UHGV virus genome: UHGV-0033085
DNA from: a virus
Strand: one strand, 5' to 3'
Length of the DNA stretch: 64,000 bases
The translations under genes were made by a program, and so were the position numbers. Below, piece by piece: positions 2,854-63,063 of the stretch (positions within the stretch are counted from its first letter, which is position 1; each line of letters opens with the position of its first letter). The notes beneath the pieces are model-generated. The model was not told the DNA's origin and ran no database searches. It was given only the letters and a program-made list of their open reading frames with translations.

Positions 2854-2877
2854 TCGGTCTGGGAGCTTATTTAAAGA

Positions 2878-2933
2878 CCTGCTTCTGTATATATAAATAA
2901 TAAGTAATTTATTAAATATATACGGAAGCAGGC
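2878..2933. repeat. 55-bp AT-rich palindromic element, copy 1 (near-identical copy at 35075-35129)
   Basis: CCTGCTTCTGTATATAT...ATATATACGGAAGCAGG inverted arms; 54/55 identical to second copy. Confidence 0.8.
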
Positions 2934-3049
2934 TTAATAAGACATGCCCAGACCTAATTAAACACCCCAGAAAACAAGTTGGTTAGCAGATGCAGTAAAC
3001 AAGTTGTTTTAGAGCGCATGGACGCGCTCTGTGTGTTTTAGAGGGATCT

Positions 3050-3682
3050 ATGACGGTCGAAAAAGACGAGGTAAAAACTCGCCTGACACCAGCGGAGTGG
3101 GCCGAAGCTGAAGCCAAATGGACGTCAGGCGAATATACACTCTCAAAGCTGGAGGAAGAGTACGGCATTCGTCGTGAAACACTCTCCAGACATTTCAAAA
3201 AGCGAGGATTAGAGAAAGGCGCGGACTCTGTTGGGAAGATGGTTCGTGAGTCTCTTAAATCTGACGCAGAGCTTCGCGCTAAAGCCCGTGCGGAAAAGAT
3301 AGAAGAACGTCGTACACGTTATGACGGCTGGGCGTATGCGTTGGGGCAGATGGTGATGGTCGAAGTCACTACGGCCAAACGTGATGGTAAGCCTTTAGGG
3401 GCGATTGAGGATTCTCTCAAGAGCTTACAGAGAGCCAGTAATACCCTTGCAAAATGCTTTGAAGTTTCGTCCAAAGCATTGGGCATGGATCATGCGGAAA
3501 ATGACGAGGAAGAAATTCCGAACCTGGTATTTGGTGAGCTTACGCCTTCCCAGGTGGCGAAATTACGTCAGGAAGACGACGAGCCTGAAATCATCGATGA
3601 CGAATTGCTTGAGACGTTGGAAGAAGAAGCTCTAAGCGAATTTGATGCGACAGATGATGGAAGTGAAGGGGAGGACGAATAA
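3050..3682 (+). CDS. terminase small subunit (putative)
   Basis: Immediately upstream of TerL with ATGA-type coupling; N-terminal helix-rich region, strongly acidic C-terminal tail. Confidence 0.55.
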   Translation: MTVEKDEVKTRLTPAEWAEAEAKWTSGEYTLSKLEEEYGIRRETLSRHFKKRGLEKGADSVGKMVRESLKSDAELRAKARAEKIEERRTRYDGWAYALGQMVMVEVTTAKRDGKPLGAIEDSLKSLQRASNTLAKCFEVSSKALGMDHAENDEEEIPNLVFGELTPSQVAKLRQEDDEPEIIDDELLETLEEEALSEFDATDDGSEGEDE

Positions 3683-13205: not shown

Positions 13206-13475
13206 GTGTCGCCATTAGAGCTACTGAACGTTCCTCTCACGATGTTCTGGATGCTCAGTCGCAATATAGACCGTCTGCGTGCGGAAGAGGATGTCCGCAA
13301 CTTACAAGTCGCTCGTGCGTCCCAGGCGGATGGCGAGGCTGTGAAGGCGTTCATGGAGGGTTTGCAACTCAGGATTGGAAGACCAGTCGTAACAGATAAA
13401 GTCTACGATCCAAGCCAGGATAAGGCAGACCCTGACGCCAAAGAGCAACTGATGCAAATATTTGGCAGAGGATGA
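13206..13475 (+). CDS. tail assembly chaperone frameshift-extension segment (gpGT-like, putative)
   Basis: -1 frame relative to G ORF is open from 13089 to 13475, overlapping the 3' end of the G ORF. Confidence 0.4.
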   Translation: MSPLELLNVPLTMFWMLSRNIDRLRAEEDVRNLQVARASQADGEAVKAFMEGLQLRIGRPVVTDKVYDPSQDKADPDAKEQLMQIFGRG

Positions 13476-13482
13476 CAAGGGA

Positions 13483-16400
13483 ATGTCACAAAACGTAGAG
13501 TTTATCCTGTCGCTGGAAGACAAACAGTTTACAGCGTCAATCGATCGTGCGGGGAAACTGCTTACTCGATTTGGTGAGCAGGTAACAAAGCCTGCTCAAA
13601 AAATCCAAACCTTTGAACGCTCTTTGGGTTCGGTCGCCCGTATCATTGGCGTTCTGGAAAGCAAGCTCGATTCTACGGCAGATAAACTACAGGATGTAGC
13701 TGCCGGTTTTGAGCTTGCTTCAGATGCTACGCGTAAAATGCGTGGCAACATCACCAGCCTCAATTCTGGTCTTAAAGCCCTGATTGAGCGCGTCGATACG
13801 ACAACTTCTTCAGTAGATAAACTCACCGCGTCATTACGTAAAGTGCAATCAGAGCTAAATGATTTCTCTGATTGGGCGACCTATGCAAGCAAAAGCGCAA
13901 GCCGCTTTGGTACGGAGGTCAAAGAAGCCTCTGCGTCCGTGAGTGGCATGAATACGCGCCTTAATACCACGACGAAGCGACTCAGTAATTGGGGTGTCAC
14001 AACGAGTCAGGCTGCCGAGGGACTGAAAAAGGTTCGTGAGCAGATGGACGAAGTTATCGGACGTCAGCAACTGATTAGCAAGCCGGTACGCGTTCGTACA
14101 TCTGGAAGTGGCGATGGTGGCAGCGGGCGGCGTAGCGGCTCTGGCCATAGCGGTAAAAGTAACGAAGGAGGTATGTTCTCTGGCCTTCGTGGCAACATTT
14201 TCCTGCTTGGCGAGATCGGAGATGCAGCCAGAACGGTTACTGACATCATGTTTGGGTGGCAGAAGCCTATTGTTGAAGCTGCGGCCGAAATGGAACGTAT
14301 GCGGGTGATGCTTCGAGGGTTGAATAAGGAGAAGTCCAACCCGGGCCAGGCTGCCGCTGATGATATGAAGTACATCGTGGATATGGCTAAGAGCGCCCCA
14401 TTTGCGATGAAAGCTCTAACCGATTCGTTCGTTAAATTCCGCTCAGCAGGATTAGATCCAACAGATGGCTCTTTAAAGACTCTTGTCGATTCCGTTGCTC
14501 GTTTTGGTGGGGATAGCGAACTTCTGAAGCGTGCATCCATTGCTGTTCAGCAGATGTCTGGTAAGGGTGTTGTATCGATGGAAGAGCTTCGCCAGCAATT
14601 AGGTGAAGCCGTTCCTAACGCGATGCAGGCAATGGCAGACGCCGCAGGCATCACTATGGGGGAACTGACTAAAGCCGTTACCAGCGGTACGGTTGAGGCA
14701 AAACAGGCGTTGTCTCTGATGTTTGTTGGTCTGCGTGCGGAGAATGAGAACGCAGCGAAAGACATGATGCAAACCTACACAGGTGCGCTGGCGCAACTTC
14801 AGACGTCATTCACGTTATTTGCTGATCGGGTTGGTCAGGCCGGATATCTGGATTCTCTATCGAAGGGGATGAAAGAACTGGCTTCAATCATGAATAGCGC
14901 CGAAGGGATTTCGTTTGCCAATTCTTTAGGTTCGGGGTTAACAACGGCAATCGATGGGTTGCGTCAGCTTGCTCAATGGTTAGCAAAGAACCAAGAGCTG
15001 GTAATTAATCTCGGTAAGGTCGTGGCCGCGATGGTTGCGTTCAAACTGATGCGAGCAGGGATCATGGGGGTAGTTGGCGCTGGGAGCCAGATGGTTAGCA
15101 CCTTTGCCACGATGGCGACCGCCATACAGACTCCATTTAACCTCGGCGCTACAGCAGTAACTCGATTCAATCGTGCGGCACGTATGGGGCTGGCTCCGAT
15201 CCCCTCTCTTATTTTCGCCATCCGTGGGGCGATTACGGGGCTTAAAGGCGCTTTTGCTGGCCTGACTGCGTTTATTGCGGCGAATCCGATAGGTTTTGTT
15301 TTCACTGCTGCAATGACCGCTGTTGCTGGCTTAATCACGTATATGACCATGCTTCGTAGCGAAACTTCAAAGGTCGTTGACGAGATTAGGAAAATACCAG
15401 AAGCGATGACGGCGGCTAAACGTGCACAGATGGCCGAGTATAAAGCGCGTCTTGAGCAACAAATCACGCAAAAGGAACAAGAGTTAAAATCTGGCGAAAA
15501 GGTGGTTTATGGGCCGGGTATGGCCGGAACTACAGTAAAGATTAATCAGGATGAACGTAAGCGTATAGAAAATGAGCTAAATGACCTTCGTAAGAAACGC
15601 GATAAAACTACTGGGGCAATTGAACGCGGAGACATTGCTGTAGCCAAACGTCTTGCAAAAGATGCGGCAGAATCACAGATAGAGAAAATACTCGAAGAGA
15701 ATAGAGACTTTGCGGCAACGTTCGTGAAAGCTCGTCAGGAGGCTCTGGAGAAAATCCAGAAAATCAAGGATGACGGTTCACTTTCGGATGACGAAAAGAA
15801 CAAGCTATTGGCACCGTTACGTGAAACGGTAAACAAAAGCTATCTGGAGCCTGCGCAAAAACTGGTTGATTCACTTTCTTCTCGTAAGAATGCGACCGAG
15901 AAGCAAATCGCGACTCTTAATGATCAGCTTGAAAAAGCGAAAAAGGAAGGAAATACCGAGCAGATTCAGAAACTGCAAGGAAGTATTCGTGGCTATCAGG
16001 AGCATTTGGAAGTCGTTGCTCAGGAACTGACTCAGGCAGAGTTTAAGAGGGATAACGCGGCCAAAAGTGGTAATGGCTTAGTGTCAATCAATGGAGATGT
16101 TCTTGGGTTAGGTACAACTGATAAAGCTGCTCAGAAGGCGCTGGCGCAATATATGCGAAACCAGATGGATTCTGCGACTTATCAGCGTACTCTGCCTGAC
16201 GGCACTCCGATGATGGACTTCGAAGGTAAGCCGATTATTGGGCCTAAACAACTCAAGACGCAGCTTAATTTGCAGAAAGCATCCAGCGCCAGCTCTCTGG
16301 AGAAAATGAGCGATGAAGAGCGTGCCGCAGCCATTGCTGCACTAACTAAAGCTCGTGAACAGGATGCAGCAGCTGCCGAGAAAGCAGCCCAACGATCAGC

Positions 16401-30884: not shown

Positions 30885-31577
30885 ATGAAAACTCCGAGAG
30901 GCATTCGTAATAACAACCCTGGCAACCTCGACAAAGGTTCGCCGTGGCAGGGGCTAATCGACAACCCTGCCGAACCGCGCTTTTGCACGTTTAAAGACCC
31001 TGTTTGGGGGATTCGTGCGCTGGCGGTGACTCTAATTACCTACCACGATAAACGTCGCGCAAAAGACGGCACAAGTATCGATACCATTCGTGAAGTTATT
31101 GAACGCTGGGCACCGCCGAATGAAAACAATACTGACGCCTACATTAATGAGGTGTCTAAAGCCGTTGGTGTAACCGCAGACATGATCATCGATCTGCATG
31201 ATTACGACATCCTTCGACCTTTGGTTGAGGCAATCATTCGCCACGAGAATGGCCGAGGCCCGCTAAAAACGCTGAACACCTGGTATGCGGCAGAAGTTAT
31301 TGAGGAAGGTCTGCGTCGAGCTGGCGTTGTTAAGCCGGTGAAAACCGTGAAGGCTGTTCCTGTAACTAAAGAAACCGCAGGCGCAACTGTTACAGCAGGT
31401 ATTGGTCTGGCGCAGCTGGCCGATGTTATGCCGCAGGTTTCCGCTGCTATGGATAAAGCACAAGGTCATATCTCTAGCGGGGATACAGTACGCATCATCT
31501 TCGGTATTGCCACTATTGTTGTGGCAGGATTCATTGCCTGGTCGCAGGTAAGAAAACACCAGAAAGGGATGGTCTAA
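30885..31577 (+). CDS. endolysin candidate (positional) with C-terminal hydrophobic segment
   Basis: Lies between holin-like gene and spanin pair; no catalytic motif recognised. Confidence 0.35.
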   Translation: MKTPRGIRNNNPGNLDKGSPWQGLIDNPAEPRFCTFKDPVWGIRALAVTLITYHDKRRAKDGTSIDTIREVIERWAPPNENNTDAYINEVSKAVGVTADMIIDLHDYDILRPLVEAIIRHENGRGPLKTLNTWYAAEVIEEGLRRAGVVKPVKTVKAVPVTKETAGATVTAGIGLAQLADVMPQVSAAMDKAQGHISSGDTVRIIFGIATIVVAGFIAWSQVRKHQKGMV

Positions 31578-32797: not shown

Positions 32798-33115
32798 GTA
32801 TTCCTCCTGATGGCCGTGATGTAGGAAGGCCATCAATCTCCTCTGTTCAAACTGAGTTTTCGACTCAAAAATTACTTTAAAAGGCTATAGCCCATTACGT
32901 GTGCATTATCAAATTGTGTACGGCATATCACCGTACTTGTAATATAGAGGTCATTGTTACTTTTTTCAACAGACAAATACAAGCTATGTTTGCCAATTGT
33001 TAATCACAACCTACCATTTAACCTTTACACCGCAGCCGTAGGCATTTAGGCTATATCACATATAAGAAAACAAATTGTTTCAGACGATAATTATATACGC
33101 AAAGGGAACTCTCCA

Positions 33116-33784
33116 ATGACCAAGATCTTTGTGGTTGGCGGCACAAAGGGCGGGCCTGGCAAATCCACCGTTGCCCAGCAAATTGCCGTTTGCCTGAAAG
33201 TCAAAAAGAAGAAGAAGGTTTATATCACTGATATAGATATTCAGCGCACGACAACGAGCTGGTGTGAAGACCGTCGACAGAACGAATACCTTGAGCTGAT
33301 TCCTTTTGCATACGTTCAGGATGACATCATTAAGCACCTAAAATCGCTTCAGGGTAGAGCTGAGTTTGTAGTGGTAGATGCTGGTGGCTTCGACTCCGAA
33401 ATTCAGCGACAAGCGATGCTGATGGCCGACGTTATCATTATCCCGCTTCGTCCTAAGCGTCGTGATTTGAAATCTCTGCGTGACATCGATCCTATTATCG
33501 ACAATGTTCGCAATGTAAACGATAAAGTGAAGGTCCGCGCGGTCATGAACCAGTGCCCGGCTTTGCCATCACAAGTGTCTCGCATTCTGGCGGCTAAAGA
33601 GATTGTTGAGACGTTTGGAATCGAGTCTGCGCCAGTCAATCTATATAACCGCAACGTCTATGATGATGCGGAAGAGTCTGGTCGTTCTATCTTTGAAATG
33701 ACCGGTAGCGAGCGCGACAAAAAGGCGGAAGCCGAGTTTGAAGAATTTGTAGATTATCTGTTGAGTCTGGAGGAAGAAGAATAA
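33116..33784 (+). CDS. parA: ParA-type partition ATPase
   Basis: Deviant Walker A GGTKGGPGKST; TAATG coupling to downstream gene. Confidence 0.8.
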   Translation: MTKIFVVGGTKGGPGKSTVAQQIAVCLKVKKKKKVYITDIDIQRTTTSWCEDRRQNEYLELIPFAYVQDDIIKHLKSLQGRAEFVVVDAGGFDSEIQRQAMLMADVIIIPLRPKRRDLKSLRDIDPIIDNVRNVNDKVKVRAVMNQCPALPSQVSRILAAKEIVETFGIESAPVNLYNRNVYDDAEESGRSIFEMTGSERDKKAEAEFEEFVDYLLSLEEEE

Positions 33785-34143
33785 TGTCCATGAAAATGGG
33801 TGACCTAGCAAAGCGCAAAGAGCCTGATGCACCGGCTAAGAACACAACTCCTTTGCGCCAACCAGTCAGACCACAGGGACGCCCGACTCGTGGCAAAGAG
33901 AAAATTAAAAGCCGCACAATGTCACTGGAGGACGAATACTTCGAACTGCTGGAGATGATGAAGTTCATCCCTCGCTTCGAGAAGTTCACTCGTTCTGACG
34001 TGATTCGAGCAGCCATTTTCCATCTGGCAGAGAAGTCACCGCAGGAAATCGAGGACATCGTGAAATTGAATGAGGCGATCACCGCTGCCGATGTCACGAT
34101 GCGTACCGATGAAATCAAACGAGAGTTGATGAAGAAAGGTTAA
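33784..34143 (+). CDS. small partition/centromere-binding protein (ParG/ParB-like, putative)
   Basis: 119-aa ORF coupled to parA, basic N-terminus. Confidence 0.45.
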   Translation: MSMKMGDLAKRKEPDAPAKNTTPLRQPVRPQGRPTRGKEKIKSRTMSLEDEYFELLEMMKFIPRFEKFTRSDVIRAAIFHLAEKSPQEIEDIVKLNEAITAADVTMRTDEIKRELMKKG

Positions 34144-34147
34144 AAAT

Positions 34148-34180
34148 TATGCATTGGCGCAATGTACGCGCCAATGCATA
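34148..34180. terminator. perfect 13-bp inverted repeat between convergent genes (bidirectional terminator candidate)
   Basis: TATGCATTGGCGC-AATGTAC-GCGCCAATGCATA. Confidence 0.45.
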
Positions 34181-34195
34181 ACTACAGTGTCAGCT

Positions 34196-34963
34196 TTATG
34201 CCGCGCTAACACTATGTTCAGTCCTAACCACCCCAACCTTCACAAAAGGGCTACCGTAGCTTGGTGGCTTCTTGATTAATTTGCCTACATACAGTTTTCT
34301 AATATGCTCATCGGCTATTCTGCCAACAAATTCATAACGTTTTGTGTCGGGGCCAAGAGCTATATCCCTTGTAAAGTACTGCTGAGAACCGGCTTTGACC
34401 CAGCATTCAATCTGATAAACTTCCATTATCAGCCCACCATATGTAGCGTAGGCATATTTGAGATTCTCGTCTCTTGGAACCTTTGCCCATACGCCACGCG
34501 TAGCTTCATATAATGCCAGAGCGGACATTCCTGACTTGTAGGTGCTGTTTAGCAGGAAGGCAAGACCGGCGTGCTCAGGAGCAATTTCAGTTTCCTCTTG
34601 CAGCACTAAGTGATGGTAGGCGTCCAGTGATATTCTGCCCATCATGGAACCACTTCCTCGTACCTTATTCGTAAGCTCTCCGACCCCCATAAGGTCGATG
34701 CATGTCGCCTCAACAAGTTTGGCTGTGGTTTCATCCATACCATGACGAAGTATATCTATGCCTAATTTTTTATTAGCCAAAAGTTCTTTGATCCGCATGG
34801 ATTTGGGAGAGTCATCGGGATACTTGATGTGATCGAGACAACGAGTCGATTTGCCTTTTCCTATGTAAAACGGTCTTTTCATCTTGTCTTCTGTATCATA
34901 GAGACAGTAAACATAGTATTTAGCCTTATCCAATGATCTCGCGTATACCGATAAATCGTCCAT
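34196..34963 (-). CDS. GIY-YIG nuclease domain protein (possible freestanding homing endonuclease)
   Basis: N-terminal YYVYCLYD...KRPFYIGKGK...R...H pattern typical of GIY-YIG. Confidence 0.55.
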   Translation of the reverse strand: MDDLSVYARSLDKAKYYVYCLYDTEDKMKRPFYIGKGKSTRCLDHIKYPDDSPKSMRIKELLANKKLGIDILRHGMDETTAKLVEATCIDLMGVGELTNKVRGSGSMMGRISLDAYHHLVLQEETEIAPEHAGLAFLLNSTYKSGMSALALYEATRGVWAKVPRDENLKYAYATYGGLIMEVYQIECWVKAGSQQYFTRDIALGPDTKRYEFVGRIADEHIRKLYVGKLIKKPPSYGSPFVKVGVVRTEHSVSAA

Positions 34964-35074
34964 TATTGCATCTCTTAGCTACTGACTAATGCGTTCTATT
35001 TTACACATAAGTTTTTAATCAATTTAACAGGCTCAAAGTGTAGAGCTTCTGGGCGTCTAAGACGACAAGTTATG

Positions 35075-35129
35075 CCTGCTTCTGTATATATAAATAATAA
35101 GTAACTTATTAAATATATACGGAAGCAGG
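35075..35129. repeat. 55-bp AT-rich palindromic element, copy 2
   Basis: 54/55 identical to 2878-2933; inner palindrome TAATAAGT-A-ACTTATTA. Confidence 0.8.
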
Positions 35130-35245
35130 TCTTTTAAAAGACACCACCAGAACAACTCCCTTCCGTTTCCACTTCCAAAAACTGCCACCAGTCGCTATCA
35201 TCCGCTCATTGTGATAAGTAAGTAACTACCTACTAGGTGAGCCAC

Positions 35246-35986: not shown

Positions 35987-36029
35987 CTAATACTAGAAAA
36001 CAATTTGTTTAAAAAACAAAGGAAAGCAC

Positions 36030-41518: not shown

Positions 41519-41717
41519 ACGGGAGAAGGAAACGCTTCATGAAATCAGTAAGTGGCCGGAGTTCCCTGAGTACTGGAAGCCTAAAACGCGAGCTAAGTTA
41601 GAGCGTTTAGGGTTGGTTGCAAACGTTTCTGAAACGTGGTGTTCGGCCAACTACCAGTTAACTGATAAAGGGAAAGTATTGCTACAGCAATTAGTAGAAT
41701 CAGGAGCGTTAAAATGA
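41502..41717 (+). CDS. hypothetical protein
   Basis: 71-aa ORF. Confidence 0.3.
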   Translation: MIVLSKREKETLHEISKWPEFPEYWKPKTRAKLERLGLVANVSETWCSANYQLTDKGKVLLQQLVESGALK

Positions 41718-41866
41718 TTCCATACATCTCATTAGCTTTTATGGGTGGCTTCCTTATCGGCTTCGGCATCTGTCGTGATTTAATTAAGCAGGAACTTAAA
41801 ACCAAAACACTGTGCATCGGAAAGCGTGTGTATCGGGTAGTTCATGAAACAAAGGTGAAAAAATGA
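41714..41866 (+). CDS. small membrane protein (50 aa, not in ORF track)
   Basis: ATGA-coupled on both sides; start is a copy of the ATGATTCCATAC half-site. Confidence 0.3.
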   Translation: MIPYISLAFMGGFLIGFGICRDLIKQELKTKTLCIGKRVYRVVHETKVKK

Positions 41867-42185: not shown

Positions 42186-42931
42186 TTTGTGTATAAGATG
42201 ACTTTGTTTTCGTTGAGACGCGACTGTTTGAACTTAAATACAAGTGCAAACGAAGAAGTCTATCTGGCAGTAGCCTAATAAGCCAAACACCAGCGAGGTC
42301 AGTTTCCAGCCTCGTTACCGAAATGGGACACACTGAGCGAGTGTGATTGCAGAACGCAGGAGGGAACATTCATGTTCCCTCCGATGAAGTAACAGAATGG
42401 GCGGTTGGTATATTTTCAACTCCATATGACTCCCGGATTCTTAGCCACTGACCGCCCATCCTGTTACGTCATTTTGTTCAATTATGTCGTTTATACTGGG
42501 TTAAAAAGCGGCGACGTAGCCCGGCTGGTATGGTTAGCCAGCACACAACGTTGAGGCCATTACATTTTTATCAATTCTAAGGTTCTATTCACAGAGATAC
42601 CGGCGAGCGTTGATATGTAACATGTTGGGCAAACATTCAATCGGAGTAGTGGCCTCAACGTTGTGAAGACAGGATTGTTGTGTAGGTTTAACCACTGTTG
42701 CCATTGGTGCCTGTTTTCACAACAAATGATTCCATACATCACATTGTATAAATTACAAAGTAGGTGCTGTCCTCAGAAACATCATCTACTTAAAGATTTT
42801 GCCTTCTACTATTGAGCGAAGTCGAAAGCGTCTGGCACTAACGAAAAGTGCAAGTAGCGGTGCGTTTCCTGGCAGAAACTAAACCGTCGCGATTGGCACT
42901 GTTGAGTAATAAATACTGGCAGTGCTGAATT

Positions 42932-44475: not shown

Positions 44476-44524
44476 CCACCAAACTCACTCCCGTTTCCCT
44501 TAAAATTCAAAAAACAACGTCAAA

Positions 44525-44555
44525 ATGATTCCATACCTACTATGTATGGAATCAT
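44525..44555. other. 31-bp perfect inverted-repeat site (12-7-12), candidate recombinase target
   Basis: ATGATTCCATAC-CTACTAT-GTATGGAATCAT, 100 bp upstream of tyrosine recombinase gene. Confidence 0.45.
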
Positions 44556-44654
44556 TACTGAAAATGAGTTACTTTTACTCTTGATCCTATAAGAATCTAT
44601 GCCTAATATACTGTTTACTTATACAGTGCATCGGCGTAACTCGGTGATTGTCAT

Positions 44655-45758
44655 ATGAAAAATAGCTTTGACAGAGCACGCGCTGCGGAGAACACCTCAA
44701 AAGAGGCGATTGAGTATCTCGAAAGAGCATCTCAAATGCAGGCCGTTATGATCTCCCAGGTCAGCAATGACATGAGATTCTCGGACGCATTCATGTTATT
44801 CACTCGCTTATCTCTGCTGATAACAAGACGTCGGCCAGAGATCGCTGTTCATTGTATTTTGATACATGTTTTGCCGCACATTGCCGATGTAAAAGTAAGT
44901 GACATTAATAGGTTCATGGTGAACCAACTGGTCAACCCACTAATACTGGATGGCAAAATTGTTATGGGCCGCCGCGTTTTCTCTCTGATGAAGCAGTTCC
45001 TTAGCTGGTGCGCCTTCCAGGGGATGATAGACGTGTCACCGTTAAACGATATGTCACTTAACAAAGTTGCCGGTGGCGCAAAGCCCACACCTCGCGAGCG
45101 GAAGCTGACCGACGCAGAGGTATGGGTGTTCTGGAATATATGGGACTACTTCAATGTGTGCGCTGGTACAAAATGGGCGGCCAGGCTGTGTCTTGTATCC
45201 GCAAGACGACCTGACGAAGTACTGCGTGCTAAAAAAAGTGAGTTCAATCTTAAGCGTGGGGTTTGGAATCAAGGCAAGAGGAACAAATCTGCCCGTGAGC
45301 ATTCGCTGCCTTTAAGCACATTAATGCGCACATGTATTGAAGAGTTGTTCGAATACGGTAAAGGCAGCCAGTGGCTCGTGCCTTCGAATAAAAAAATCGG
45401 GAAAGACCTTCCTATGTCTAAAGTGGCAATAGCCCAGGCATTACGTCGTATTCTGGAACGACCAGAACTGATGGAGCTTGAGCCATTTACACCCCGAGAC
45501 TTGCGCCGTACTGCGCGTAGTTACTTCCCAGCATTAGACATAAGCCAGGAGGTATCACGCAAAATCATGAACCACAGTCTTGAGGGGATAGATCGAGTCT
45601 ACGACCGGCACGATTATATGGACGAGATGCGAGACGCCTTAGAAAGTTTCTCGACGTACATCGCATCAATCGTAGAGCAACCGGATTTAGACGAAATTGA
45701 CCACAAATTCAAGGGAGATCGTCTATCAACAGAGCTTATTCGTGTAAATTTTTCATAG
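44655..45758 (+). CDS. tyrosine site-specific recombinase (integrase/resolvase family)
   Basis: C-terminal catalytic pattern: R in LRRTARSY, H in MNHS, Y in RVYDRHDY. Confidence 0.75.
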   Translation: MKNSFDRARAAENTSKEAIEYLERASQMQAVMISQVSNDMRFSDAFMLFTRLSLLITRRRPEIAVHCILIHVLPHIADVKVSDINRFMVNQLVNPLILDGKIVMGRRVFSLMKQFLSWCAFQGMIDVSPLNDMSLNKVAGGAKPTPRERKLTDAEVWVFWNIWDYFNVCAGTKWAARLCLVSARRPDEVLRAKKSEFNLKRGVWNQGKRNKSAREHSLPLSTLMRTCIEELFEYGKGSQWLVPSNKKIGKDLPMSKVAIAQALRRILERPELMELEPFTPRDLRRTARSYFPALDISQEVSRKIMNHSLEGIDRVYDRHDYMDEMRDALESFSTYIASIVEQPDLDEIDHKFKGDRLSTELIRVNFS

Positions 45759-46602: not shown

Positions 46603-46700
46603 CCCCTCTTCTCCCTGCGCGAATGGCTTAGTTCCCTGTTCGCGCAGTGCTACATTAAACACAGTAGTAAATAATTTGTTTTCATAACAAAGGATTAGCC

Positions 46701-48809
46701 ATGTCTAAAAAACGTTCCATCAAAGAGGTTCAGGACTTCCGTGACAGTGTAAAACGAGTAGTCGCTCTCCTTTCAGGTAAAAACATCCCTGTTGCAGAAC
46801 GAGGGGACGACGCTTATGTACGCTATAACGATGATGGAGAGCCAATTCTCGTAAACATCCCATCAATCCCGGATAACGCAACACCGGCATTGATGAATGC
46901 TGTGCGCGGATTTCTCGATCATGAGGTTGCTCACATTTTGTTTACCGATATTCGTGTGTCCAACAAAATGAGAGAAAAAGGACGCGTTCCTTCCTGGTCG
47001 CTATGGAATGCCTTAGAAGACGTGTTCATCGAGCGAAAAATGGGTCAGGTCTTTAACGGAACAAGACGTAATCTGATGGCAACTCAGCGCCTTATAATCG
47101 AAAAAGTCTTTAAACCAAAGGCTTCAGAGGCTATTGCTTATTGTGGCAAAGATCAGCGCGCGCTTTTTCTAAACTTCTTTCTCTGTCCGGTTGTAAGAGC
47201 CTGGGATGGCCAAGCACCGTTCGTAGATTTCATGGATGAACATTGGCCTGTCATTGAGAAACCAATTTCATTATTAAAAGAACATGGTATCGATGTGGCC
47301 GTGCGTAACATGTCTTGCACCGAGGATTGTGTAAAGGTGGCTGCGACCATAGCTAAGATCCTCAAAGACACTGAAAGTGAAAGCAAAGGTAAGGAGTCAG
47401 CTCCGGGAAAAACTTCCGATCCTTCAGACGCTGACCAGACGGATGCCTCTGGAGAAAACAATGAAGACAACGAAGATCATGAGACACCCTCAGCGTTAGA
47501 TAATCACAAATCTATCAAATCAGAATCACATAGTAAGTACAAACATGATAATAACGACAGTGATGATTCAGATAATTCTGAATCATCAGAAACAATATTC
47601 GATGATACAGAAAATGATAAAGAGGTATCAGATTCTGATGCTTCTGATAACGCGGCGTCAGAATCATTAACCGCTGACCACGAAAAAAGAAAAACGACAG
47701 AAGACGGCTCTTCAGATATCCCAACTCCGTCAAAAATGAGTCTGGAAGAGGCTTTAGAGGAGTTGGATAGCATGGAAGATGAAGTCGGAGGCATGACAGA
47801 AGATGCGCTATCCGAAACGATTAAAAGCGAGTTAACAGAAAGCTCGAAAAGCGAATACAGGCCATACAATCGCTCATACGACTTCATCGGCTCGATTGAT
47901 CAGGCAGAAGCCCATATCAAACGGCTTATTAAAACATTCTCCGATATTGATTTGGGAGGATATCCAATCAGCCGCTATCGCATCGTTCCTGAAGGCAACC
48001 AGCTCTTCGACAAATATATTGAAAAGCATCTTTCGTCAGGTGTTTCGTCGACGCTGGCAAAAGACCTGGAGCGAGCAATAGCAAGCAGAAACAGAGTTCA
48101 GTTTATACCGGGCCAGCGTCGGGGGCGCATTCATGGTTCTAGTATCTACAGATTAGCAATGAATGATGCTCGCGTGTTTCGTAAAAAAGAAGAATCTAAA
48201 GCCGTTAACGCCTGTGTTCAACAAGTGATTGATTTATCAGGTTCAATGAGTGGTATAACGATTAAACTGGCTCTTGCAAGTGCATATACCATCGCCGATG
48301 CCCTTGATCGAATAAATGTTCCCAACATTATCACCGGCTTCACTACATTTGGTAGTCATATGGCGGCAGGAGAACTTAAGGCTGTCAAGTATGAGTTCTC
48401 TCGCTTTGAATCTTTAATGCTACCTATCATCAAAAATTGGAATGAAAAGGTAAATTCTCGCGAAGTTCGCTCACGTATGGGGTGCGTAGGCTACACATTC
48501 CCACTTCTTAATAACGTGGATGGTGAAAGCATAGCCAGCCTTGCATCGTTATTTTCCGGTCGCTTGGAGGACAGGAAGATCATGCTTGTTCTGAGTGATG
48601 GCGCGCCGTGGGCTGTTGGGAGAGGTTTTGACGCTCATTTGCGTTCAGTTGCGAAGCAAATTGAAACGCAGACTGATATTGATTTGATGGCAATTGGCAT
48701 CATGACTGACGCACCGGAGAGATTTTACTCAAATCATGCCCTGGTAACGAGCGTTGATAGTCTTGGTTCATCTGTAGTTACTGAACTATCTCGTATCATT
48801 TTAAAGTGA
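46701..48809 (+). CDS. CobT-like protein with C-terminal vWA domain
   Basis: MIDAS motif DLSGSMSG; long Asp/Ser/Glu-rich acidic middle region; adjacent to AAA+ partner. Confidence 0.6.
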   Translation: MSKKRSIKEVQDFRDSVKRVVALLSGKNIPVAERGDDAYVRYNDDGEPILVNIPSIPDNATPALMNAVRGFLDHEVAHILFTDIRVSNKMREKGRVPSWSLWNALEDVFIERKMGQVFNGTRRNLMATQRLIIEKVFKPKASEAIAYCGKDQRALFLNFFLCPVVRAWDGQAPFVDFMDEHWPVIEKPISLLKEHGIDVAVRNMSCTEDCVKVAATIAKILKDTESESKGKESAPGKTSDPSDADQTDASGENNEDNEDHETPSALDNHKSIKSESHSKYKHDNNDSDDSDNSESSETIFDDTENDKEVSDSDASDNAASESLTADHEKRKTTEDGSSDIPTPSKMSLEEALEELDSMEDEVGGMTEDALSETIKSELTESSKSEYRPYNRSYDFIGSIDQAEAHIKRLIKTFSDIDLGGYPISRYRIVPEGNQLFDKYIEKHLSSGVSSTLAKDLERAIASRNRVQFIPGQRRGRIHGSSIYRLAMNDARVFRKKEESKAVNACVQQVIDLSGSMSGITIKLALASAYTIADALDRINVPNIITGFTTFGSHMAAGELKAVKYEFSRFESLMLPIIKNWNEKVNSREVRSRMGCVGYTFPLLNNVDGESIASLASLFSGRLEDRKIMLVLSDGAPWAVGRGFDAHLRSVAKQIETQTDIDLMAIGIMTDAPERFYSNHALVTSVDSLGSSVVTELSRIILK

Positions 48810-48904
48810 ACAAAACAGCCTTAACGATAAGTAACCACTTACGATATATAATGATATATTTATATAAGAAGTTGAACGCTCATTAGAGAACAAAGGAAAA
48901 ACGC

Positions 48905-50140
48905 ATGACGACTACTGCACTGCAAAATGAAAAAAATCCTTCTGATTACCTTGTTTGCAAGTGGTGCGGCAAATCATTTCACTATTTTAAGTCCCATGTA
49001 GCCAATGGTAATTGCGAGGGCATTCCTGAGTCAGTAAAAGATGCCGATCCTGACACCGTACTGAAAATGTACACAACGCAGTTTCCAGATGAACCAACGC
49101 TATCGAAAAAGGCACTTGATGCAATTCAAGCTAAACGTGCCGAGCAAAAAAGCGAAATGGCCAAATCTTCTGGCTTGACCAGTAGCCCTGGCTACACAGG
49201 CACAGTTGAGTACAAGACAGATCTGGTCGCAGCTCACGAACTGCTAAACGTAACAGTGGAAGAACTCGGAACAAAACGTGGGACGCCGCTCATGGTTAGC
49301 GTCAACGTCAATACGCCGTATCCAGAGTTCGTTCCCGAAGTGAAGAAAGGCTACGTATATGGCGACTTCGAACTGATCAAAGATATTTTCATGATGCTTG
49401 AACTTGGCATACCTGGCTATTTGTGGGGTCATGCAGGAACAGGCAAATCGTCATTGCCTACACAGCTATGTGCTTTGCTCAATCGTCCGTTGATCCGTGC
49501 CCAACATACAGCATCAATGGAAGAGGCACATGTTACGGGGCAAATTCTGGCGCGTGATGGCTCTACGTATTTCGAACCTGGCTTGCTTGCGCTCGCAATG
49601 AAGCATGGCTGGGTTTACCTCGCGGATGAATACGACTTTGCGTTTCCACAAATTCTTGGCGTGTATCAGCCAGTGCTGGAAGGTGAAGCGTTGGTCATCA
49701 AAGAGGCAACTCCAGAATGGCGTCGCATTACTCCGCATGAACGGTTTGCTTTCATTGGCACTGGCAACACGAACGGATCTGGTGATGAAACCGGCTTGTA
49801 CCAGGGTACAAACATCCAGAACGCCGCGAACTTTTCGCGTTTTGGCATCGTTTCGAATGTGAAATACATGAGCAAAGACGCAGAGATCAACATGTTGACA
49901 AATGCAGGCATCGTGGATGAATACGCTGAAAAGATGGTTAAGTTTGCCGGTATCGTTCGCGATGGATACGAAGAACACCTCATTAGTCAGCCAATTGGCC
50001 CTCGTGAACTTTTGTTGTCGGCCAAGATTGGAATGATGCGAGGCGACTTTGTGACAGGTATTGAGCGTTCTTTCATTAACAAACTCCCTTCAGCTTCTGC
50101 ACAAGCGGCTCGTGAAGTTGTTCAAAAAATATTTGGTTAA
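48905..50140 (+). CDS. CobS/MoxR-like AAA+ ATPase
   Basis: Walker A GHAGTGKSS, Walker B YLADEYD; N-terminal Cys/His cluster CKWCGKSFHYFKSH. Confidence 0.6.
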   Translation: MTTTALQNEKNPSDYLVCKWCGKSFHYFKSHVANGNCEGIPESVKDADPDTVLKMYTTQFPDEPTLSKKALDAIQAKRAEQKSEMAKSSGLTSSPGYTGTVEYKTDLVAAHELLNVTVEELGTKRGTPLMVSVNVNTPYPEFVPEVKKGYVYGDFELIKDIFMMLELGIPGYLWGHAGTGKSSLPTQLCALLNRPLIRAQHTASMEEAHVTGQILARDGSTYFEPGLLALAMKHGWVYLADEYDFAFPQILGVYQPVLEGEALVIKEATPEWRRITPHERFAFIGTGNTNGSGDETGLYQGTNIQNAANFSRFGIVSNVKYMSKDAEINMLTNAGIVDEYAEKMVKFAGIVRDGYEEHLISQPIGPRELLLSAKIGMMRGDFVTGIERSFINKLPSASAQAAREVVQKIFG

Positions 50141-50192
50141 TCGTGCGTAAAGGATGTTTCGGCTCTCTTATCGCTGCTTCTGAAACTGGTAA

Positions 50193-50219
50193 GGCTTGTC
50201 TGGTGTGTCCAGACAAGCC
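50193..50219. promoter_or_regulatory. perfect 11-bp stem hairpin in gap before polymerase gene
   Basis: GGCTTGTCTGG-TGTGT-CCAGACAAGCC, no U-tract. Confidence 0.35.
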
Positions 50220-50320
50220 CGATTGTCACCAATCAGCAAAAGAAGTTGCGATTTCGATGCATGGGAAGTTCGTAGGCTTCCACAATGACAAAATCAAAAA
50301 AACCAGAAAGGTAAAAACAC

Positions 50321-52684
50321 ATGAAGGCACTGATGGTTCGAACTGACTTCTCACTTGGGGAGTCGGCTCTAAAAGCAGAAAACGCGGTGAAGATTGCCAG
50401 AGAAGCTGGCTACACCGCTGTAATTTCAGCAGATAGCATGAATATTGCGAGCGTTATTCCACTACAACGTGCCGCTGGTGACGACATGGCGGTTATTTGT
50501 GGTGTGAAACTAAACATTGTTGATGATCCCACATACGAGCACCGGGCTAAACTTGCTAAAGAATCTATGAGATGTATGGAATCATTAGAGCGAGGACGTA
50601 ACTACTCGTTTACCGCTCTAATTAAAAATGAGAAAGGATATCGCGACATCTGCGAACTAATGACGGCGGCCAACACACGAGAACAGTTCTACTTTGTACC
50701 GCGTCTCTCGCTCGAACAGTTGGTTTCTACATATGCCAAAGGCAACATCATCCTGCTTACTTCCGACATCGGTAGCGTGTTCCAACGCAACGATTTTGCA
50801 AAAATCATAAGCACACTGATTACAGCGGGTGGAAAAGACAACTTCTATAGTGTGGTTTATCCGCACCCTACCCCATTCTACGACCAGATTAACGTCCGGG
50901 CGATGAAAGTCGCCAGCGCATTGAAAATAGAGCCAGTGGCGTTCTATCCCGCTTATTACGAATCGATCGACGATGCAGACATTAAAGACATTGCGCACAT
51001 GGTTACGAACAACATCAAAATCGACCAGCCGCATCGTCTGCGTATCCCCCACCAGCGAGATAACGCCGTCAATGGTCGCCGCCATCTCCTTGAGGCGCTT
51101 AAAGCCTTCTCCGTTCGCATGGATGTGCCGGTAACAGCTGCAATGGCCTCAACAACGCAGGATACCATTATCGATGCCTGCACATGGCGCTGGCATGAAT
51201 TGCCGCCAGCACTGCCAAAGATGGCAGACGACGAGCCTGCAACGCTGATGAAACTGGCTGTTGCAGGGCTGCGTAAACGTCTTACCACAAAAGAGTTTGG
51301 CTACACACCACCTGCTTCTGAGAACAGGGTTTATGTTGAGCGGCTAAAGTACGAAATGGACACGCTGACTCGCCTGGGATTCTGTGGTTACTTCCTGATG
51401 GTGCGCGATCTGATGAATCATAGTCGTGAAACTGGCATTCCCGTTGGGCCTGGTCGTGGTTCCTCTGCCGGTTCTCTGGTGGCGTGGTGCATAGGCATAA
51501 CCAACGTCGACCCAATCCGTCACGGTCTTCTGTTTGAGCGTTTCATCAACCCTGAGCGTCTCGACTTGCCGGATGCGGACTTGGACTTCAGCCAGGCACG
51601 TCGCCATGAGGTGATCGAGTATCTGAATGAACGCTACGGCGAAGATTACGTTGCAGGCATTCCGAACTTCACCTACCTGGGCGCAGCCTCTGCACTACGT
51701 GATACCGCTCGTATTTATGGTGTGGAGTCCGCAGATATGGCGGTATCAAAAGAGCTGAAGAACGTCGAGGATGATAGCCTTCCATTGGAGGAGCTGCGCG
51801 AACAACTGGCAAGTCTCGACAAATACGCAACAAAATATCCTGATGCATTCAATGCAGCCTGCAAGTTACAAAGCCTTATGCGTGGCTTTGGTAGACATGC
51901 GGCAGGGATGATCGTAGCAGGTGTTCCTCTGACAGAACGTACACCGGTTGAACGCCGTGGTGACGCGCGTTGTATCGCATTTGACAAGCGTTACTGCGAG
52001 GCTATGGGCCTAATTAAGCTGGACGTACTCGGTCTGGCAACTCTCGATTTGCTCGATAGTGCAAAACGCTACATAAAAGAGAACACAGGTGAAGATATCA
52101 ATCTTGATGCCATTTCTCTTGAAGATCGCAAGGTGCTGGATGGTTTTGCTGCAGGGTATACACAGGGCGTATTCCAGCTTGAATCAGGCCCAATGCGCAA
52201 GCTGCTTAAAGATTTAGGTGGTGGAATTGAGCCAATGAGCTTTAAAACGGTCGTCGCTACAACTGCGCTCTTCCGACCTGGCCCGATTCAATCCGGCATG
52301 TTGGACGATTATGTGTCCGTGGCCAAAGGCTTCATGGCCCCACATTCCTTACACCCAATGCTGGACGACATCTCTCGCGACACAAACGGAGTTCTGATTT
52401 ATCAGGAACAGATCATGGCTGCTACGCGAATCTTGGCGGGGTTCTCAATGGCGGAAGCAGACTCGGTCAGGAAAGCGATCGGGAAAAAAGATATGGAGAA
52501 AATGAAATCCATTGGCGGCGACTTCATTAAGCGAGCGGAGGAAGGCTGGGTGACAGTGTCACTGGATGATGGTTCTACGAGAAAAATCCATAAAGCAGCA
52601 CGCCTACTTTGTGCTGATGGTGAGCGTCGCACTTATGCCGAAGCAATGGCAATAAATGCCGACATAACGAGCTTCGATATTTGA
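50321..52684 (+). CDS. dnaE: DNA polymerase III alpha (DnaE-type), N-terminal fragment; last about 45 codons non-homologous
   Basis: PHP-like N-terminus; core motif GPGRGSSAGSLVAWCIGITNVDP, LLFERFINPER, DADLDF; homology ends near 52546. Confidence 0.8.
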   Translation: MKALMVRTDFSLGESALKAENAVKIAREAGYTAVISADSMNIASVIPLQRAAGDDMAVICGVKLNIVDDPTYEHRAKLAKESMRCMESLERGRNYSFTALIKNEKGYRDICELMTAANTREQFYFVPRLSLEQLVSTYAKGNIILLTSDIGSVFQRNDFAKIISTLITAGGKDNFYSVVYPHPTPFYDQINVRAMKVASALKIEPVAFYPAYYESIDDADIKDIAHMVTNNIKIDQPHRLRIPHQRDNAVNGRRHLLEALKAFSVRMDVPVTAAMASTTQDTIIDACTWRWHELPPALPKMADDEPATLMKLAVAGLRKRLTTKEFGYTPPASENRVYVERLKYEMDTLTRLGFCGYFLMVRDLMNHSRETGIPVGPGRGSSAGSLVAWCIGITNVDPIRHGLLFERFINPERLDLPDADLDFSQARRHEVIEYLNERYGEDYVAGIPNFTYLGAASALRDTARIYGVESADMAVSKELKNVEDDSLPLEELREQLASLDKYATKYPDAFNAACKLQSLMRGFGRHAAGMIVAGVPLTERTPVERRGDARCIAFDKRYCEAMGLIKLDVLGLATLDLLDSAKRYIKENTGEDINLDAISLEDRKVLDGFAAGYTQGVFQLESGPMRKLLKDLGGGIEPMSFKTVVATTALFRPGPIQSGMLDDYVSVAKGFMAPHSLHPMLDDISRDTNGVLIYQEQIMAATRILAGFSMAEADSVRKAIGKKDMEKMKSIGGDFIKRAEEGWVTVSLDDGSTRKIHKAARLLCADGERRTYAEAMAINADITSFDI

Positions 52685-52732
52685 GAATTAATTTATAAGA
52701 TAAGAAAACAATTTGTTTAGTGAGTCTTAGAA

Positions 52733-53467
52733 ATGCCGAGTACGAAGTACAAAATCACAGAAGAATGGTTACGTCAGCGTTACATGGTTGACCTGATGAG
52801 AAAAGAAGACATTGCCGCCGAAGCTGGTTGCAGCAAGGCAAATATTGACCGCTTATTAGCCAAATGGGGGATCAGGCGCGGAAGCGCGCGGATCTCCGCT
52901 ACCCCAGCCTGGAATCGTGGCAAAAACAAAAATAATGACGAACGTATGAAGCGTCTCTCCGAAGCCCGGACTGGCACTGGCAACCCTATGTATGGGAAAA
53001 CCTCGTGGAATGCCGGTCTGCGTGCTGATATCGATGAGCGAGTGGCCACCGTTTCGAAAAAGCTAACCGGCAGAACAATCCGCGCGGAGACGAAGGAAAA
53101 GCTGGCGGCTGCCAAACGTGGAAAGATCGGAGAAGAAGCGAACAACTACAAAGGTGGCATCATCGTAAAAACCAACGGCTACATGATGCAGCTGGTTGGT
53201 AACAATGGCGTTTCGCAATACGAATACGTTCATCGATTGATAGCGAAAGAACGTCTCGGTCGGGAGCTACGTGACGATGAACATGTCCACCATATTAACC
53301 GCGATACGATAGATAACGCCCCTGGGAATCTTGTAGCACTTCCAGAAGACGCCCACATTCGCCTGCATAGTGAAATGCGTGAAGAGATATGGAGCTGGGA
53401 GCGCCAACGGAACTGGCTGGCCTCCAATGGGTATGAGTTCGTGAAGATTGATGAGGTGACTGCATGA
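52733..53467 (+). CDS. HNH homing endonuclease (NUMOD-like repeats + HNH)
   Basis: HNH motif HHINRDTIDNAPGNLVALPEDAHIRLH; repeated GKxxWNxG / KRLSEARTG-type motifs. Confidence 0.8.
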   Translation: MPSTKYKITEEWLRQRYMVDLMRKEDIAAEAGCSKANIDRLLAKWGIRRGSARISATPAWNRGKNKNNDERMKRLSEARTGTGNPMYGKTSWNAGLRADIDERVATVSKKLTGRTIRAETKEKLAAAKRGKIGEEANNYKGGIIVKTNGYMMQLVGNNGVSQYEYVHRLIAKERLGRELRDDEHVHHINRDTIDNAPGNLVALPEDAHIRLHSEMREEIWSWERQRNWLASNGYEFVKIDEVTA

Positions 53468-59853: not shown

Positions 59854-59901
59854 CGCAATTATCTTATTAAGAAAACAATTTGTTTAAAAGGATAAGAAAA
59901 C

Positions 59902-61466: not shown

Positions 61467-61951
61467 TCACCGCTGACAGCATACACAATCAACTACCGCT
61501 GATAGCATATCGAGAGTCTATCTCACCGCTCACAGCATACTTTACTCGATTTTTTACCGCTGACAGCATACTTAAGACATTGCATGAATAATGTGTACCG
61601 GTATGGGTATAACCAGAACAAAATTACCGCTGGCAGCATACGAAGGTCTGACATATACCATTAATTACCGCTGATAGCATATCCAAACAAAAATTCCTCA
61701 ATAAAACACCGCTGACAGCATACGTTCTATCAGGGAGCAGCAGGCAATAAATGCCTTTCACTACAAGCAATCAGCGCAATAGCAATAGAATGTTAGTGAG
61801 CGCAAACCTATATGGAATGCACTCTTCGAGGTTAGTAACCACTGGGGAGGTATGACAGAGCATTGAGTGGTGATAGATGATTTACCGCCCACAGCATACG
61901 TTCATCTCACTATACCGCTGGTAGCATACATTTCACCGCTGACAGCATATC
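61467..61951. repeat. iteron array downstream of repA (about 10 copies of YACCGCTGACAGCATAC; incA-like)
   Basis: Direct repeats at about 61467, 61493, 61521, 61554, 61624, 61674, 61707, 61882, 61912, 61932. Confidence 0.8.
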
Positions 61952-63044
61952 AAAGCAGTTTGAGACTATTGGAAAGGATCTCAATCATCTTGATATTTTC
62001 AGGCGTCAAATTCTGCGAAAGTTCGGTTATCTTGTTGATAATGTTCTGTTTGGCATCAATTTCCCCAGCTTTCTCATCTAGTTTTTTGGGTTCGATGTCT
62101 TCAGGTTTTGGCGGTGCGACTTTGAGTTTTGGATTGCGGCTGTGAATCTGGATATAGATCGACCGCCCTCGCTTAATCTCGCTGTATTCGAGATAACCCA
62201 AATCTTGGAGAGCTTTTAAGCCGTTGCGTATAGTCTGATTCTGCGAGCTGACATTCCTGCTACTCAAATTGAGTCGCGCACGCAATCGAGCAAGCGATAC
62301 CGGCGCAGGCTTGGTTGGAAGACTTTCGATGAAGGTGTACAGAGCCTGTGCTGTTTCTTTGCGTGGTAGCTTATTGATAACCTTTAACTGCAAAAGAACC
62401 TTATGGTCAAAGCGATATAGTTCGGCCAGCTTCGGTTCTGCATAGAACACCACCGTATCTTTCTGCTCGTTGTAGTCCACGCTATTGATGAGGTGCACCA
62501 TCAGAAGCGAGATCTTGTTAGAGCCGTCGACGTTCTTTTCTTCATACGTTCTCTGGAAAGACAGAGTTGTACGCATGATCTTCAAAAGACTGTTTGTAAG
62601 CCGGTCGCGGAGTGTTTTGCGGATCTGTGACGATGGATAGCCACAAAACTTCGCAAATTTCGTGATGCTTAACTCGACACGACCGTTAGGTTCGCCGTAT
62701 TCTGCCAGCGAACGCACAACGCCCACCCACGTTTTGAAATCATGATCCATGTCGAGACGAGGACCGGTTATCTTGATATCGGAATAGCCTTCAGAACGGG
62801 CTACTTCGAGCTGAACAAGCTCCTTTGAAGCATCGATCTCATTTGGCTTGTTACGCTTGCTGTATTTTGTCCCCTTGAGCGTGGGCACGAACAATCCCAG
62901 CCGCATCAACGCAATTGGTTGGACTGTATTGTTGCTATTAGGGACAAGTTCCCCTGTGTACAATTCAAGGGAACCTTCTTCAAAGTTGTCGATGTTATCT
63001 TCTACTTCTTTGTTATTTTTACCTTTTTTATTTTTTGTGGACAT
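61950..63044 (-). CDS. repA: RepA plasmid replication initiator (P1 RepA-like)
   Basis: Segments NSNNTVQPIALMRLG and DIKITGPRLDMDHDFKTW match P1 RepA from memory; ATG 63044 with AAGGTG upstream; listed N-extension lies over iterons. Confidence 0.75.
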   Translation of the reverse strand: MSTKNKKGKNNKEVEDNIDNFEEGSLELYTGELVPNSNNTVQPIALMRLGLFVPTLKGTKYSKRNKPNEIDASKELVQLEVARSEGYSDIKITGPRLDMDHDFKTWVGVVRSLAEYGEPNGRVELSITKFAKFCGYPSSQIRKTLRDRLTNSLLKIMRTTLSFQRTYEEKNVDGSNKISLLMVHLINSVDYNEQKDTVVFYAEPKLAELYRFDHKVLLQLKVINKLPRKETAQALYTFIESLPTKPAPVSLARLRARLNLSSRNVSSQNQTIRNGLKALQDLGYLEYSEIKRGRSIYIQIHSRNPKLKVAPPKPEDIEPKKLDEKAGEIDAKQNIINKITELSQNLTPENIKMIEILSNSLKLL

Positions 63045-63063
63045 GTGGACACCTTTGTCATTC

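Follow-up and report, generated by a model that had tools for sequence, protein, structure and literature searches.

A conserved long-stemmed palindrome at three module borders of SSU5-like phage-plasmids is a probable transcription terminator or insulator

The DNA analyzed here, a stretch of 64,000 nucleotides hereafter called the window, belongs to an SSU5-like phage-plasmid of E. coli and carries two copies of a 55-bp imperfect palindrome that occurs three times per genome in this family: copy A before terS, copy B before the replication module, and copy C, which lies outside the window, after a Dam-like methylase gene. In these almost unidirectionally transcribed genomes, the elements mark the junctions between the structural/lysis, replication/nucleotide-metabolism, and accessory/regulatory modules, and we consider it probable that they are plus-strand, module-boundary transcription terminators or insulators, a reading that is well supported at B, likely at C, and uncertain at A. 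The element is an undescribed, unusually built, and unusually conserved version of a known kind of signal, and our literature searches on the termini, palindromes, and transcript maps of SSU5, pHCM2, pMT1, and Cyrano turned up no account of it.

The two window copies of the element, CCTGCTTCTGTATATATAAATAATAAGTAA(T/C)TTATTAAATATATACGGAAGCAGG, lie at 2878-2932 and 35075-35129 and agree at 54 of 55 bases, the sole mismatch being T at 2908 in A and C at 35105 in B. A 30-nt half-element query allowing up to 3 mismatches matched only at these two places in the window and found no match in 100 dinucleotide-preserving shuffles. The pair of near-identical palindromes claimed in the preliminary description is therefore real, and both places had been located correctly, with the end of copy A, put at 2933, one base too far. 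Its account of the neighboring genes also holds: A lies between an 88-aa ORF (2587-2853) and terS (3050-3682), and B lies between a minus-strand gene whose product carries a GIY-YIG domain (34196-34963, PF22945) and ORF 35246. The proposed extent of 55 bp is correct for the core, which is itself nested in a hairpin of ~100 nt with outer arms, giving the following features:

2856..2865, plus strand: left outer arm of A, GGTCTGGGAG, starting 2 nt past the TAA stop codon at 2851-2853 and pairing with 2947-2954
2878..2932, plus strand: core palindrome, copy A, 25 nt past the stop of ORF 2587-2853 and 117 nt before the terS ATG
2947..2954, plus strand: right outer arm of A, CCCAGACC, partner of 2856-2865
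35048..35058, plus strand: left outer arms of B, TCTGG at 35048-35052 and GTCT at 35055-35058
35075..35129, plus strand: core palindrome, copy B, 116 nt before the ATG of ORF 35246
35130..35135, plus strand: U-tract of B, TCTTTT, directly 3' of the core B stem
35139..35151, plus strand: right outer arms of B, AGAC at 35139-35142 and CCAGA at 35147-35151

Both cores share an outer stem of 17 bp (CCTGCTTCTGTATATAT / ATATATACGGAAGCAGG) with one T·G position and a G+C-rich base (CCTGC/GCAGG), an asymmetric AAA/A internal loop, and an inner stem (TAATAAG/CTTATTA) of 6-7 bp, which comprises 6 bp and a 5-nt loop in A and 7 bp and a 3-nt loop in B. The predicted RNA folds reach -30 to -32 kcal/mol, with z-scores of -7.6 to -8.4 relative to shuffles. 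By stem length, the A and B cores are the longest-stemmed hairpins in the 64-kb window; by raw energy in 70-nt windows they rank only about 11th, as G+C-rich regions fold harder, and the z-score against shuffles is thus the relevant measure. A scan of the region with Rfam 15 returned no model at gathering score and only sub-threshold generic miRNA-precursor hairpins.

Each core sits inside a larger hairpin of ~100 nt (GGTCTGGGAG...CTCCCAGACC). The core alone is predicted to form a helix of 17 + 7 bp, to which the outer arms would add 8-10 bp for a total of ~40 bp. The predicted fold of 2836-2975, at -53.7 kcal/mol, includes the extended hairpin of copy A (2856-2954); at B, pairing of the modeled outer arms is restricted to transcripts that extend past the U-tract. 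The outer arms are paired in the minimum-free-energy folds of nearly all relatives, and the outer-arm motif has no dispersed copies elsewhere in the window. Compensatory changes are seen at site A in 3 pairs that lie outside the core (covariation score 0.149 versus 0.103 in shuffles), which represent few independent events. Covariation of the core stem within the clade did not exceed that of shuffles, the stem being too conserved.

CMS-2020a and PhiR41_1 share 98-99% identity with the window, and Salmonella phage SSU5 and Klebsiella relatives share ~80%; a TerS search of genome contigs yielded only 4 close relatives. In the linear SSU5 record, copy A is divided between the two ends and lies upstream of terS, B lies at 33.5 kb, and C at 78.3 kb, the copies being placed 23-28 nt past the stops of SSU5_130, SSU5_037, and SSU5_088; in the E. 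coli lineage, copy C is found at 13435-13487 of PhiR41_1. At all three sites in SSU5, Cyrano, and PhiR41_1 the element begins 22-28 nt past the stop of a plus-strand gene, such that the extended structure starts a few nucleotides past that stop and precedes the first gene of the next module. All 85 instances recovered by a sequence-pattern search of IMG/VR map to A, B, or C. Sampling anchored on the flanking proteins, and hence independent of the element's own sequence, recovered the element at 74 of 76 A loci (the two exceptions being cut short upstream of terS), 80 of 80 B loci, and 68 of 80 C loci. Its orientation is constant in 209 of 219 loci, and the interior is flipped in 9; 8 of these are B copies, the Cyrano type among them, and the ninth is a C copy. 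Approximately 800 PLSDB plasmids from Klebsiella, Escherichia, Enterobacter, Yersinia, Salmonella, Citrobacter, and Cronobacter carry the element, as do 260 of 5,426 complete E. coli genomes, in which 1042 of 1044 matching places are on plasmids of the SSU5-like family. In the Acinetobacter relative pZHOU-1, we found no comparable three-copy palindrome, only a dispersed TAAGCACTTA-type motif.

Identity among the E. coli, Salmonella, and Klebsiella types is 89-93% in the core, compared with 70-87% in the flanking genes and 50-82% in the flanking non-coding DNA. The core interior differs in Salmonella and Klebsiella relatives (CTAAGTGAC or CTACATATT). In two contigs one variant interior is common to all three sites, and in the copy-exchange comparison A and B of the E. 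coli type are identical; copies within a genome exchange sequence by gene conversion. More distant relatives retain the positions and fill them differently. K. michiganensis pRHBSTW-00909_5 (TerS 64% identical) has canonical GC-rich hairpins followed by T-runs at A, B, and C, with a different shared repeat of ~50 nt in front of the B and C terminators, and K. oxytoca (TerS 58% identical) has a degenerate core plus TCTCTTTTT at A, a canonical terminator followed by a decayed core relic at B, and a canonical terminator at C. In another clade, site C is occupied by a long hairpin, GCCTTGCTCCCATATAT...ATGGGAGCAAGGC, inside CCGCAGTGT...ACACTGCGG, which has the same architecture, another sequence, and no T-run; a search for further copies of this GCCTTGCTCCCATATAT palindrome returned only site C orthologues and chance matches. 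Because terminators or like structures occupy the same sites in sister clades, the three positions are conserved punctuation marks, each filled by a terminator-like structure.

The sequence 3' of the core distinguishes the three sites. Scoring a U-tract as at least 5 T within the first 8 nt 3' of the core among unique sequences, we found one in 87% of B, 69% of C, and 0% of A copies (n = 36 for A). The sequence downstream of the core is TCTTTTAAAAG or TCTTTTTCTATG at B and CTTTTTAAG or CTGTTTTG at C; at A, where there is no U-tract, it is CTTAATAAG in the window and TTCTGAATA or CTCTCAAAC elsewhere. On the minus strand no T-runs follow the core, save a weak one at window copy A. Simple T counts were used in place of the d'Aubenton-Carafa score, which as implemented is uncalibrated and was negative for a canonical-looking hairpin as well.

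Transcription across the element can be read from published RNA-seq of Cyrano, the phage-plasmid of strain LF82, a prophage that is 97-99% identical to the window (Misson et al. 2023, PMC9928086, table S1). The normalized counts of the plus-strand genes leading up to B are 50 for CYRAN_28 (parA), 89 for CYRAN_29, and 55 for CYRAN_30, and fall to 6.2, the floor, for CYRAN_31, the homologue of ORF 35246 (PMC9928086). In several conditions, log2 values fall from 9.8-10.4 to 2.6-3.1 across B (PMC9928086, table S1), a drop of ~100-200-fold in steady-state, gene-level abundance during lysogeny, a measure in which termination and processing followed by decay look alike. The sole structure in the 193-nt gap between CYRAN_30 and CYRAN_31 is element B itself (31159-31212), which lies 25 nt past the stop and is followed by TCTTTTAAAG. 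Around Cyrano A and C, genes on both sides are silent in lysogeny, and only a weak, 2-5-fold drop is seen from CYRAN_123 to terS. Approximately 400 nt downstream of element C, the 45-codon ORF CYRAN_81 (OV696614.1 78657-78791) belongs to the Cyrano loci with the highest expression in lysogeny, at 117 normalized counts against a background of ~10 (PMC9928086, table S1), and could be a small RNA or small protein gene.

Two further hairpins lie near the window copies. Of all 70-nt folds in the window, that of 34146-34215 is the most stable (-40.2 kcal/mol); it consists of two adjacent hairpins that separate the convergent ends of the parA operon (33784-34143, plus strand) and the GIY-YIG gene (34196-34963, minus strand), where they are likely to form a bidirectional terminator. 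A canonical-looking hairpin at 3010-3031, TAGAGCGC-ATGGAC-GCGCTCTG followed by TGTGTTTTAG, lies only ~20 nt before the terS start codon and may attenuate the late operon, which, if so, would imply antitermination control.

Like intrinsic terminators, the elements pair a stable hairpin with a G+C-rich base, follow a co-directional gene, carry a U-tract at B and C, and coincide at B with a drop in RNA. Unlike them, they have a far longer and more AT-rich stem (17 + 7 bp) nested in a second inverted repeat, occur as three near-identical copies per genome that are 89-93% conserved across genera, and lack a U-tract at copy A. Of the roles suggested in the preliminary description, bidirectional termination comes closest: termination is best supported, with RNA falling ~100-fold at B, but it would be unidirectional, as T-runs follow the core at B and C on the plus strand and not on the minus strand. 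We propose that the core hairpin and U-tract would act as a factor-independent terminator or insulator that prevents transcription of the plasmid-maintenance and cargo genes active in lysogeny from running on into the silent replication and late genes. Copy A, having no U-tract in this clade, would be a leaky terminator at best and may serve mainly as an RNA 3'-end or processing hairpin. In read-through RNA, and only there, the outer arms may pair to give a duplex of ~40 bp that could be a substrate of RNase III, comparable to lambda tI/sib. Gene conversion, selection against mutations on one side of the stem, or both may keep the copies nearly identical.

Several features fit a plain terminator less well. 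A near-perfect, AU-rich helix of 24 bp is atypical of E. coli terminators, and the core is conserved above its neighboring genes with no covariation of the stem above shuffles; this combination, unusual for ordinary terminators, suggests a sequence-specific constraint. Given the core conservation and the absence of a U-tract at A, the element may have a further sequence-specific role, for example in regulated read-through or RNase III processing. In the window lineage, a minus-strand gene stands just upstream of B and a strong hairpin at 34146-34215 already follows the parA operon, which makes B partly redundant there. One elaboration, which we regard as quite unlikely, would have the elements act as conditional terminators recognized by sequence by a phage-plasmid factor, insulating the modules in lysogeny and giving way on induction to read-through or processing, through an antiterminator or through RNase III acting on the extended hairpin. 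If so, the accessory, late, and replication modules would be coupled into one temporal program by a tI/sib-like switch used three times, with copy A, lacking the U-tract, as a dedicated processing version. The misfit features, namely the core conservation, the missing U-tract at A, and the nested arms, offer a testable handle on the regulation of these little-studied phage-plasmids. SSU5-like phage-plasmids are widespread in clinical Enterobacteriaceae, with resistance and toxin cargo aboard; if the hairpins set the borders of transcription units, this would explain how maintenance and cargo genes are expressed in lysogeny beside silent lytic modules, would define the right-hand edge of the cargo hotspot described below, and would provide annotators and engineers with a compact, conserved insulator.

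The main rival to the terminator or insulator reading, and one we consider unlikely, holds that RNase III cleaves at the long hairpins, splitting a polycistronic RNA that runs the length of the genome into mRNAs of module size or triggering decay of the upstream message, the U-tracts at B and C being secondary. RNase III requires roughly 20 bp of duplex, which the predicted, nearly continuous AU-rich duplex of 17 + 7 bp would exceed, the more so at ~40 bp with the outer arms; copy A retains the hairpin in the absence of a U-tract, and the drop in RNA at B would also be expected if RNase III cut the transcript and the downstream piece then decayed. The early RNase III sites of T7 resemble one another, as do the copies of the element, and these T7 R-sites are likewise intergenic hairpins with internal loops in a unidirectionally transcribed phage genome, while at lambda tI/sib, as predicted here, a terminator hairpin joins a longer duplex only in read-through RNA. 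There is, however, no sequence similarity to either system, the elements stand at module borders and not between individual genes, and cleavage is a prediction. Set against this rival, too, are the short canonical terminators of sister clades, which are not RNase III substrates, the conservation of the U-tracts at B and C, and the tolerance of flipped interiors; the asymmetry of G·U over A·C positions gives no consistent plus-strand signal, and Salmonella-type C folds are more stable on the minus strand. A DNA or RNA binding site for a phage-plasmid protein, whether a module operator, an antiterminator loading site, or a dispersed centromere like the four sop sites of N15, seems improbable to us. 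Conservation of the core above that of neighboring genes would suit such a site, as would the palindromic arms, the likeness of the three copies (in some genomes down to one variant interior at all three), the position of B downstream of the parA operon, and the conserved 88-aa protein encoded just before A, which the Cyrano annotators consider DNA-binding. But no candidate binder is tied to all three sites, the conserved 17-bp arms lie 38 bp apart center to center, a spacing unlike that of a dimer operator, the interior varies and can be inverted, variable cargo separates B from parA, and in the K. michiganensis and K. oxytoca relatives, which retain ParA, TerS, and the order of modules, ordinary terminators stand in place of the palindrome. 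For the IHF consensus WATCAANNNNTTR, the two extended elements contain no exact match and a single 1-mismatch match, in A only. The idea of a high-affinity operator or IHF-type site finds little support, given the missing consensus, half-sites 38 bp apart, the flippable interior, and the ordinary terminators of sister clades.

It is very doubtful that copy A is part of a packaging signal (cos or pac), with the other copies as relics or decoys. Copy A does lie 117 nt upstream of terS without a U-tract, and the linear GenBank records of SSU5 and Cyrano both start inside it, 8 nt right of center. Yet the same core recurs at B and C, 32 kb and ~78 kb away, so that three copies are present per genome with only A near terS, in place of the single site of a cos or pac; in sister clades whose TerS and TerL are homologous, site A holds a plain terminator; and TerL is nearest to ATPases of the P74-26 and T4 gp17 type, while Cyrano TerS is not known to cut at A. 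The Cyrano record was probably oriented after that of SSU5, and a break at a palindrome is likely to be an artefact of assembly. Thus the suggestion that the copy upstream of terS might be packaging-related, which finds its one basis in these record starts, is opposed by the two further copies. The records of SSU5 (NC_018843.1, position 1 / 103299) and Cyrano (OV696614.1, position 1) are cut after ...ACTTATTA and before AATATATACGG, which may reflect either a hairpin-related assembly break or a hint of physical DNA ends; in the literature on SSU5, pHCM2, pMT1, and Cyrano we found no mapping of virion ends. Similarly improbable, to a high degree, is a mobile or recombinogenic palindrome, whether a repeat of the MITE/REP type or a site-specific recombination site responsible for exchanging modules. 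In its favor are the left edge of B, which borders a cargo hotspot with 14 unrelated upstream classes in 74 loci, homology to SSU5 and some E. coli relatives that starts exactly at the element, and the gene conversion observed between copies. Against it, the element occupies only three fixed syntenic sites with invariant flanks at A and C, 1042 of 1044 matches among 5,426 complete E. coli genomes are on SSU5-like family plasmids, three direct copies of a recombinase site would delete modules, and the integrase has a lox-like site of its own at 44524-44556.

What the variation around B does establish is the position of the element relative to cargo. The 300 nt upstream of B fall into 14 unrelated classes in 74 loci, compared with 1 class for all other flanks except for 2 downstream of C, and B is also the exact point from which the window is homologous to SSU5 and to some E. 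coli relatives. Element B thus forms the fixed right-hand edge of the cargo hotspot that follows parA. This cargo comprises the GIY-YIG gene in the window, toxin-like genes in Cyrano, and DUF2971 and others in SSU5. A breakpoint at the edge of B is expected of the first conserved, selected sequence after a variable region and does not require a dedicated recombination site. The notion of module-boundary recombination sites thus survives in part: the elements are borders, as the three syntenic copies split the structural, replication, and accessory arcs and B forms the cargo edge, and there is no sign of a dedicated recombination site.

Candidate identities from known repeat families likewise fit poorly. 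A MITE or REP element was rejected, since 1042 of the 1044 E. coli matches are on plasmids and all instances are at A, B, or C. REP/BIME sequences do resemble the element in being repeated imperfect palindromes just past stops that are homogenized within a genome, and REPs are thought to stabilize or attenuate transcripts; unlike it, they are chromosomal and number in the hundreds, whereas this element belongs to one phage-plasmid family, has three fixed sites, and differs in sequence and size. A partition centromere (parS) is improbable, as K. michiganensis and K. oxytoca keep a ParA-like ATPase by B along with terminators or a decayed relic; a separate parS iteron array was not found upstream of parA. 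The centromere palindromes and telRL of N15 are also dispersed palindromes in a phage-plasmid, and telRL is also ~56 bp, but the replicons here are circular with no annotated protelomerase, which led us to reject a telRL-type site as well; relatives with the same ParA lack the palindrome, and a link to ParB would be conjectural. The operon upstream of A (98-2853) encodes a ParB_N-domain protein, an ABC-type ATPase, two unknown proteins, and the 88-aa protein (phrog_900). Its homologue is silent in Cyrano lysogens, which makes it unlikely that this operon is the plasmid partition system.

The inner palindrome had been related to a dispersed motif, GATAAGTAAGTA, a kinship that proved weak, as the core interior is at least 3 mismatches away and differs in Salmonella and Klebsiella. 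The motif itself, a part-palindromic GATAAGTAAGTA(CTTACTTATC), has 18 matches in the window at up to 2 mismatches, compared with 4 expected, at places that include 6441, 18425, 30465, 35213, 42173, 55203, and 58733. The matches are mostly on the plus strand, intergenic, and 20-60 nt before start codons, and the motif may be a family promoter, operator, or 5'-UTR signal; its analogues are GGTAAGCGCTTACC in SSU5 and TTAGTAAGCACTTACTAA in Acinetobacter relatives. A second small palindrome, AGAAAACAA(T/A)TTGTTT, is present at 2969-2999, 33066-33083, 35995-36025, 46666-46696, 52703-52733, and 59870-59900, directly upstream of terS, parA, dnaB, and other genes, and in K. oxytoca the AGAAAACAA-type motif occurs as inverted pairs (locus L379, 7813-7850; NZ_CP138770.1, 85406-85469).

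In the distant relative A. baumannii pZHOU-1, a gene for a sigma-70 family sigma factor adjoins a MoxR/CobS-like ATPase gene (locus L382, 22485-23150); no sigma-70 factor gene was noticed at the corresponding place in the E. coli window (46701-50346). A perfect palindrome of loxP-like geometry, with 13-bp arms and a 7-bp spacer (AATGATTCCATAC-CTACTAT-GTATGGAATCATT, 44524-44556), lies ~100 bp upstream of the tyrosine integrase gene (44655-45758, PF00589) and is probably a dimer-resolution or attachment site of the integrase. Half-sites related to it are found at 41712-41733, 42724-42745, and 50567-50586, and K. oxytoca has the same lox-like arrangement by its integrase (locus L379, 15793-15825). 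Finally, twelve iteron-like copies of ACCGCTGACAGCATAC between 61462 and 63166 flank a minus-strand ORF (61950-63164) with a Rep3 initiator WH1 domain (PF01051), and this region is likely to be the plasmid replication origin.
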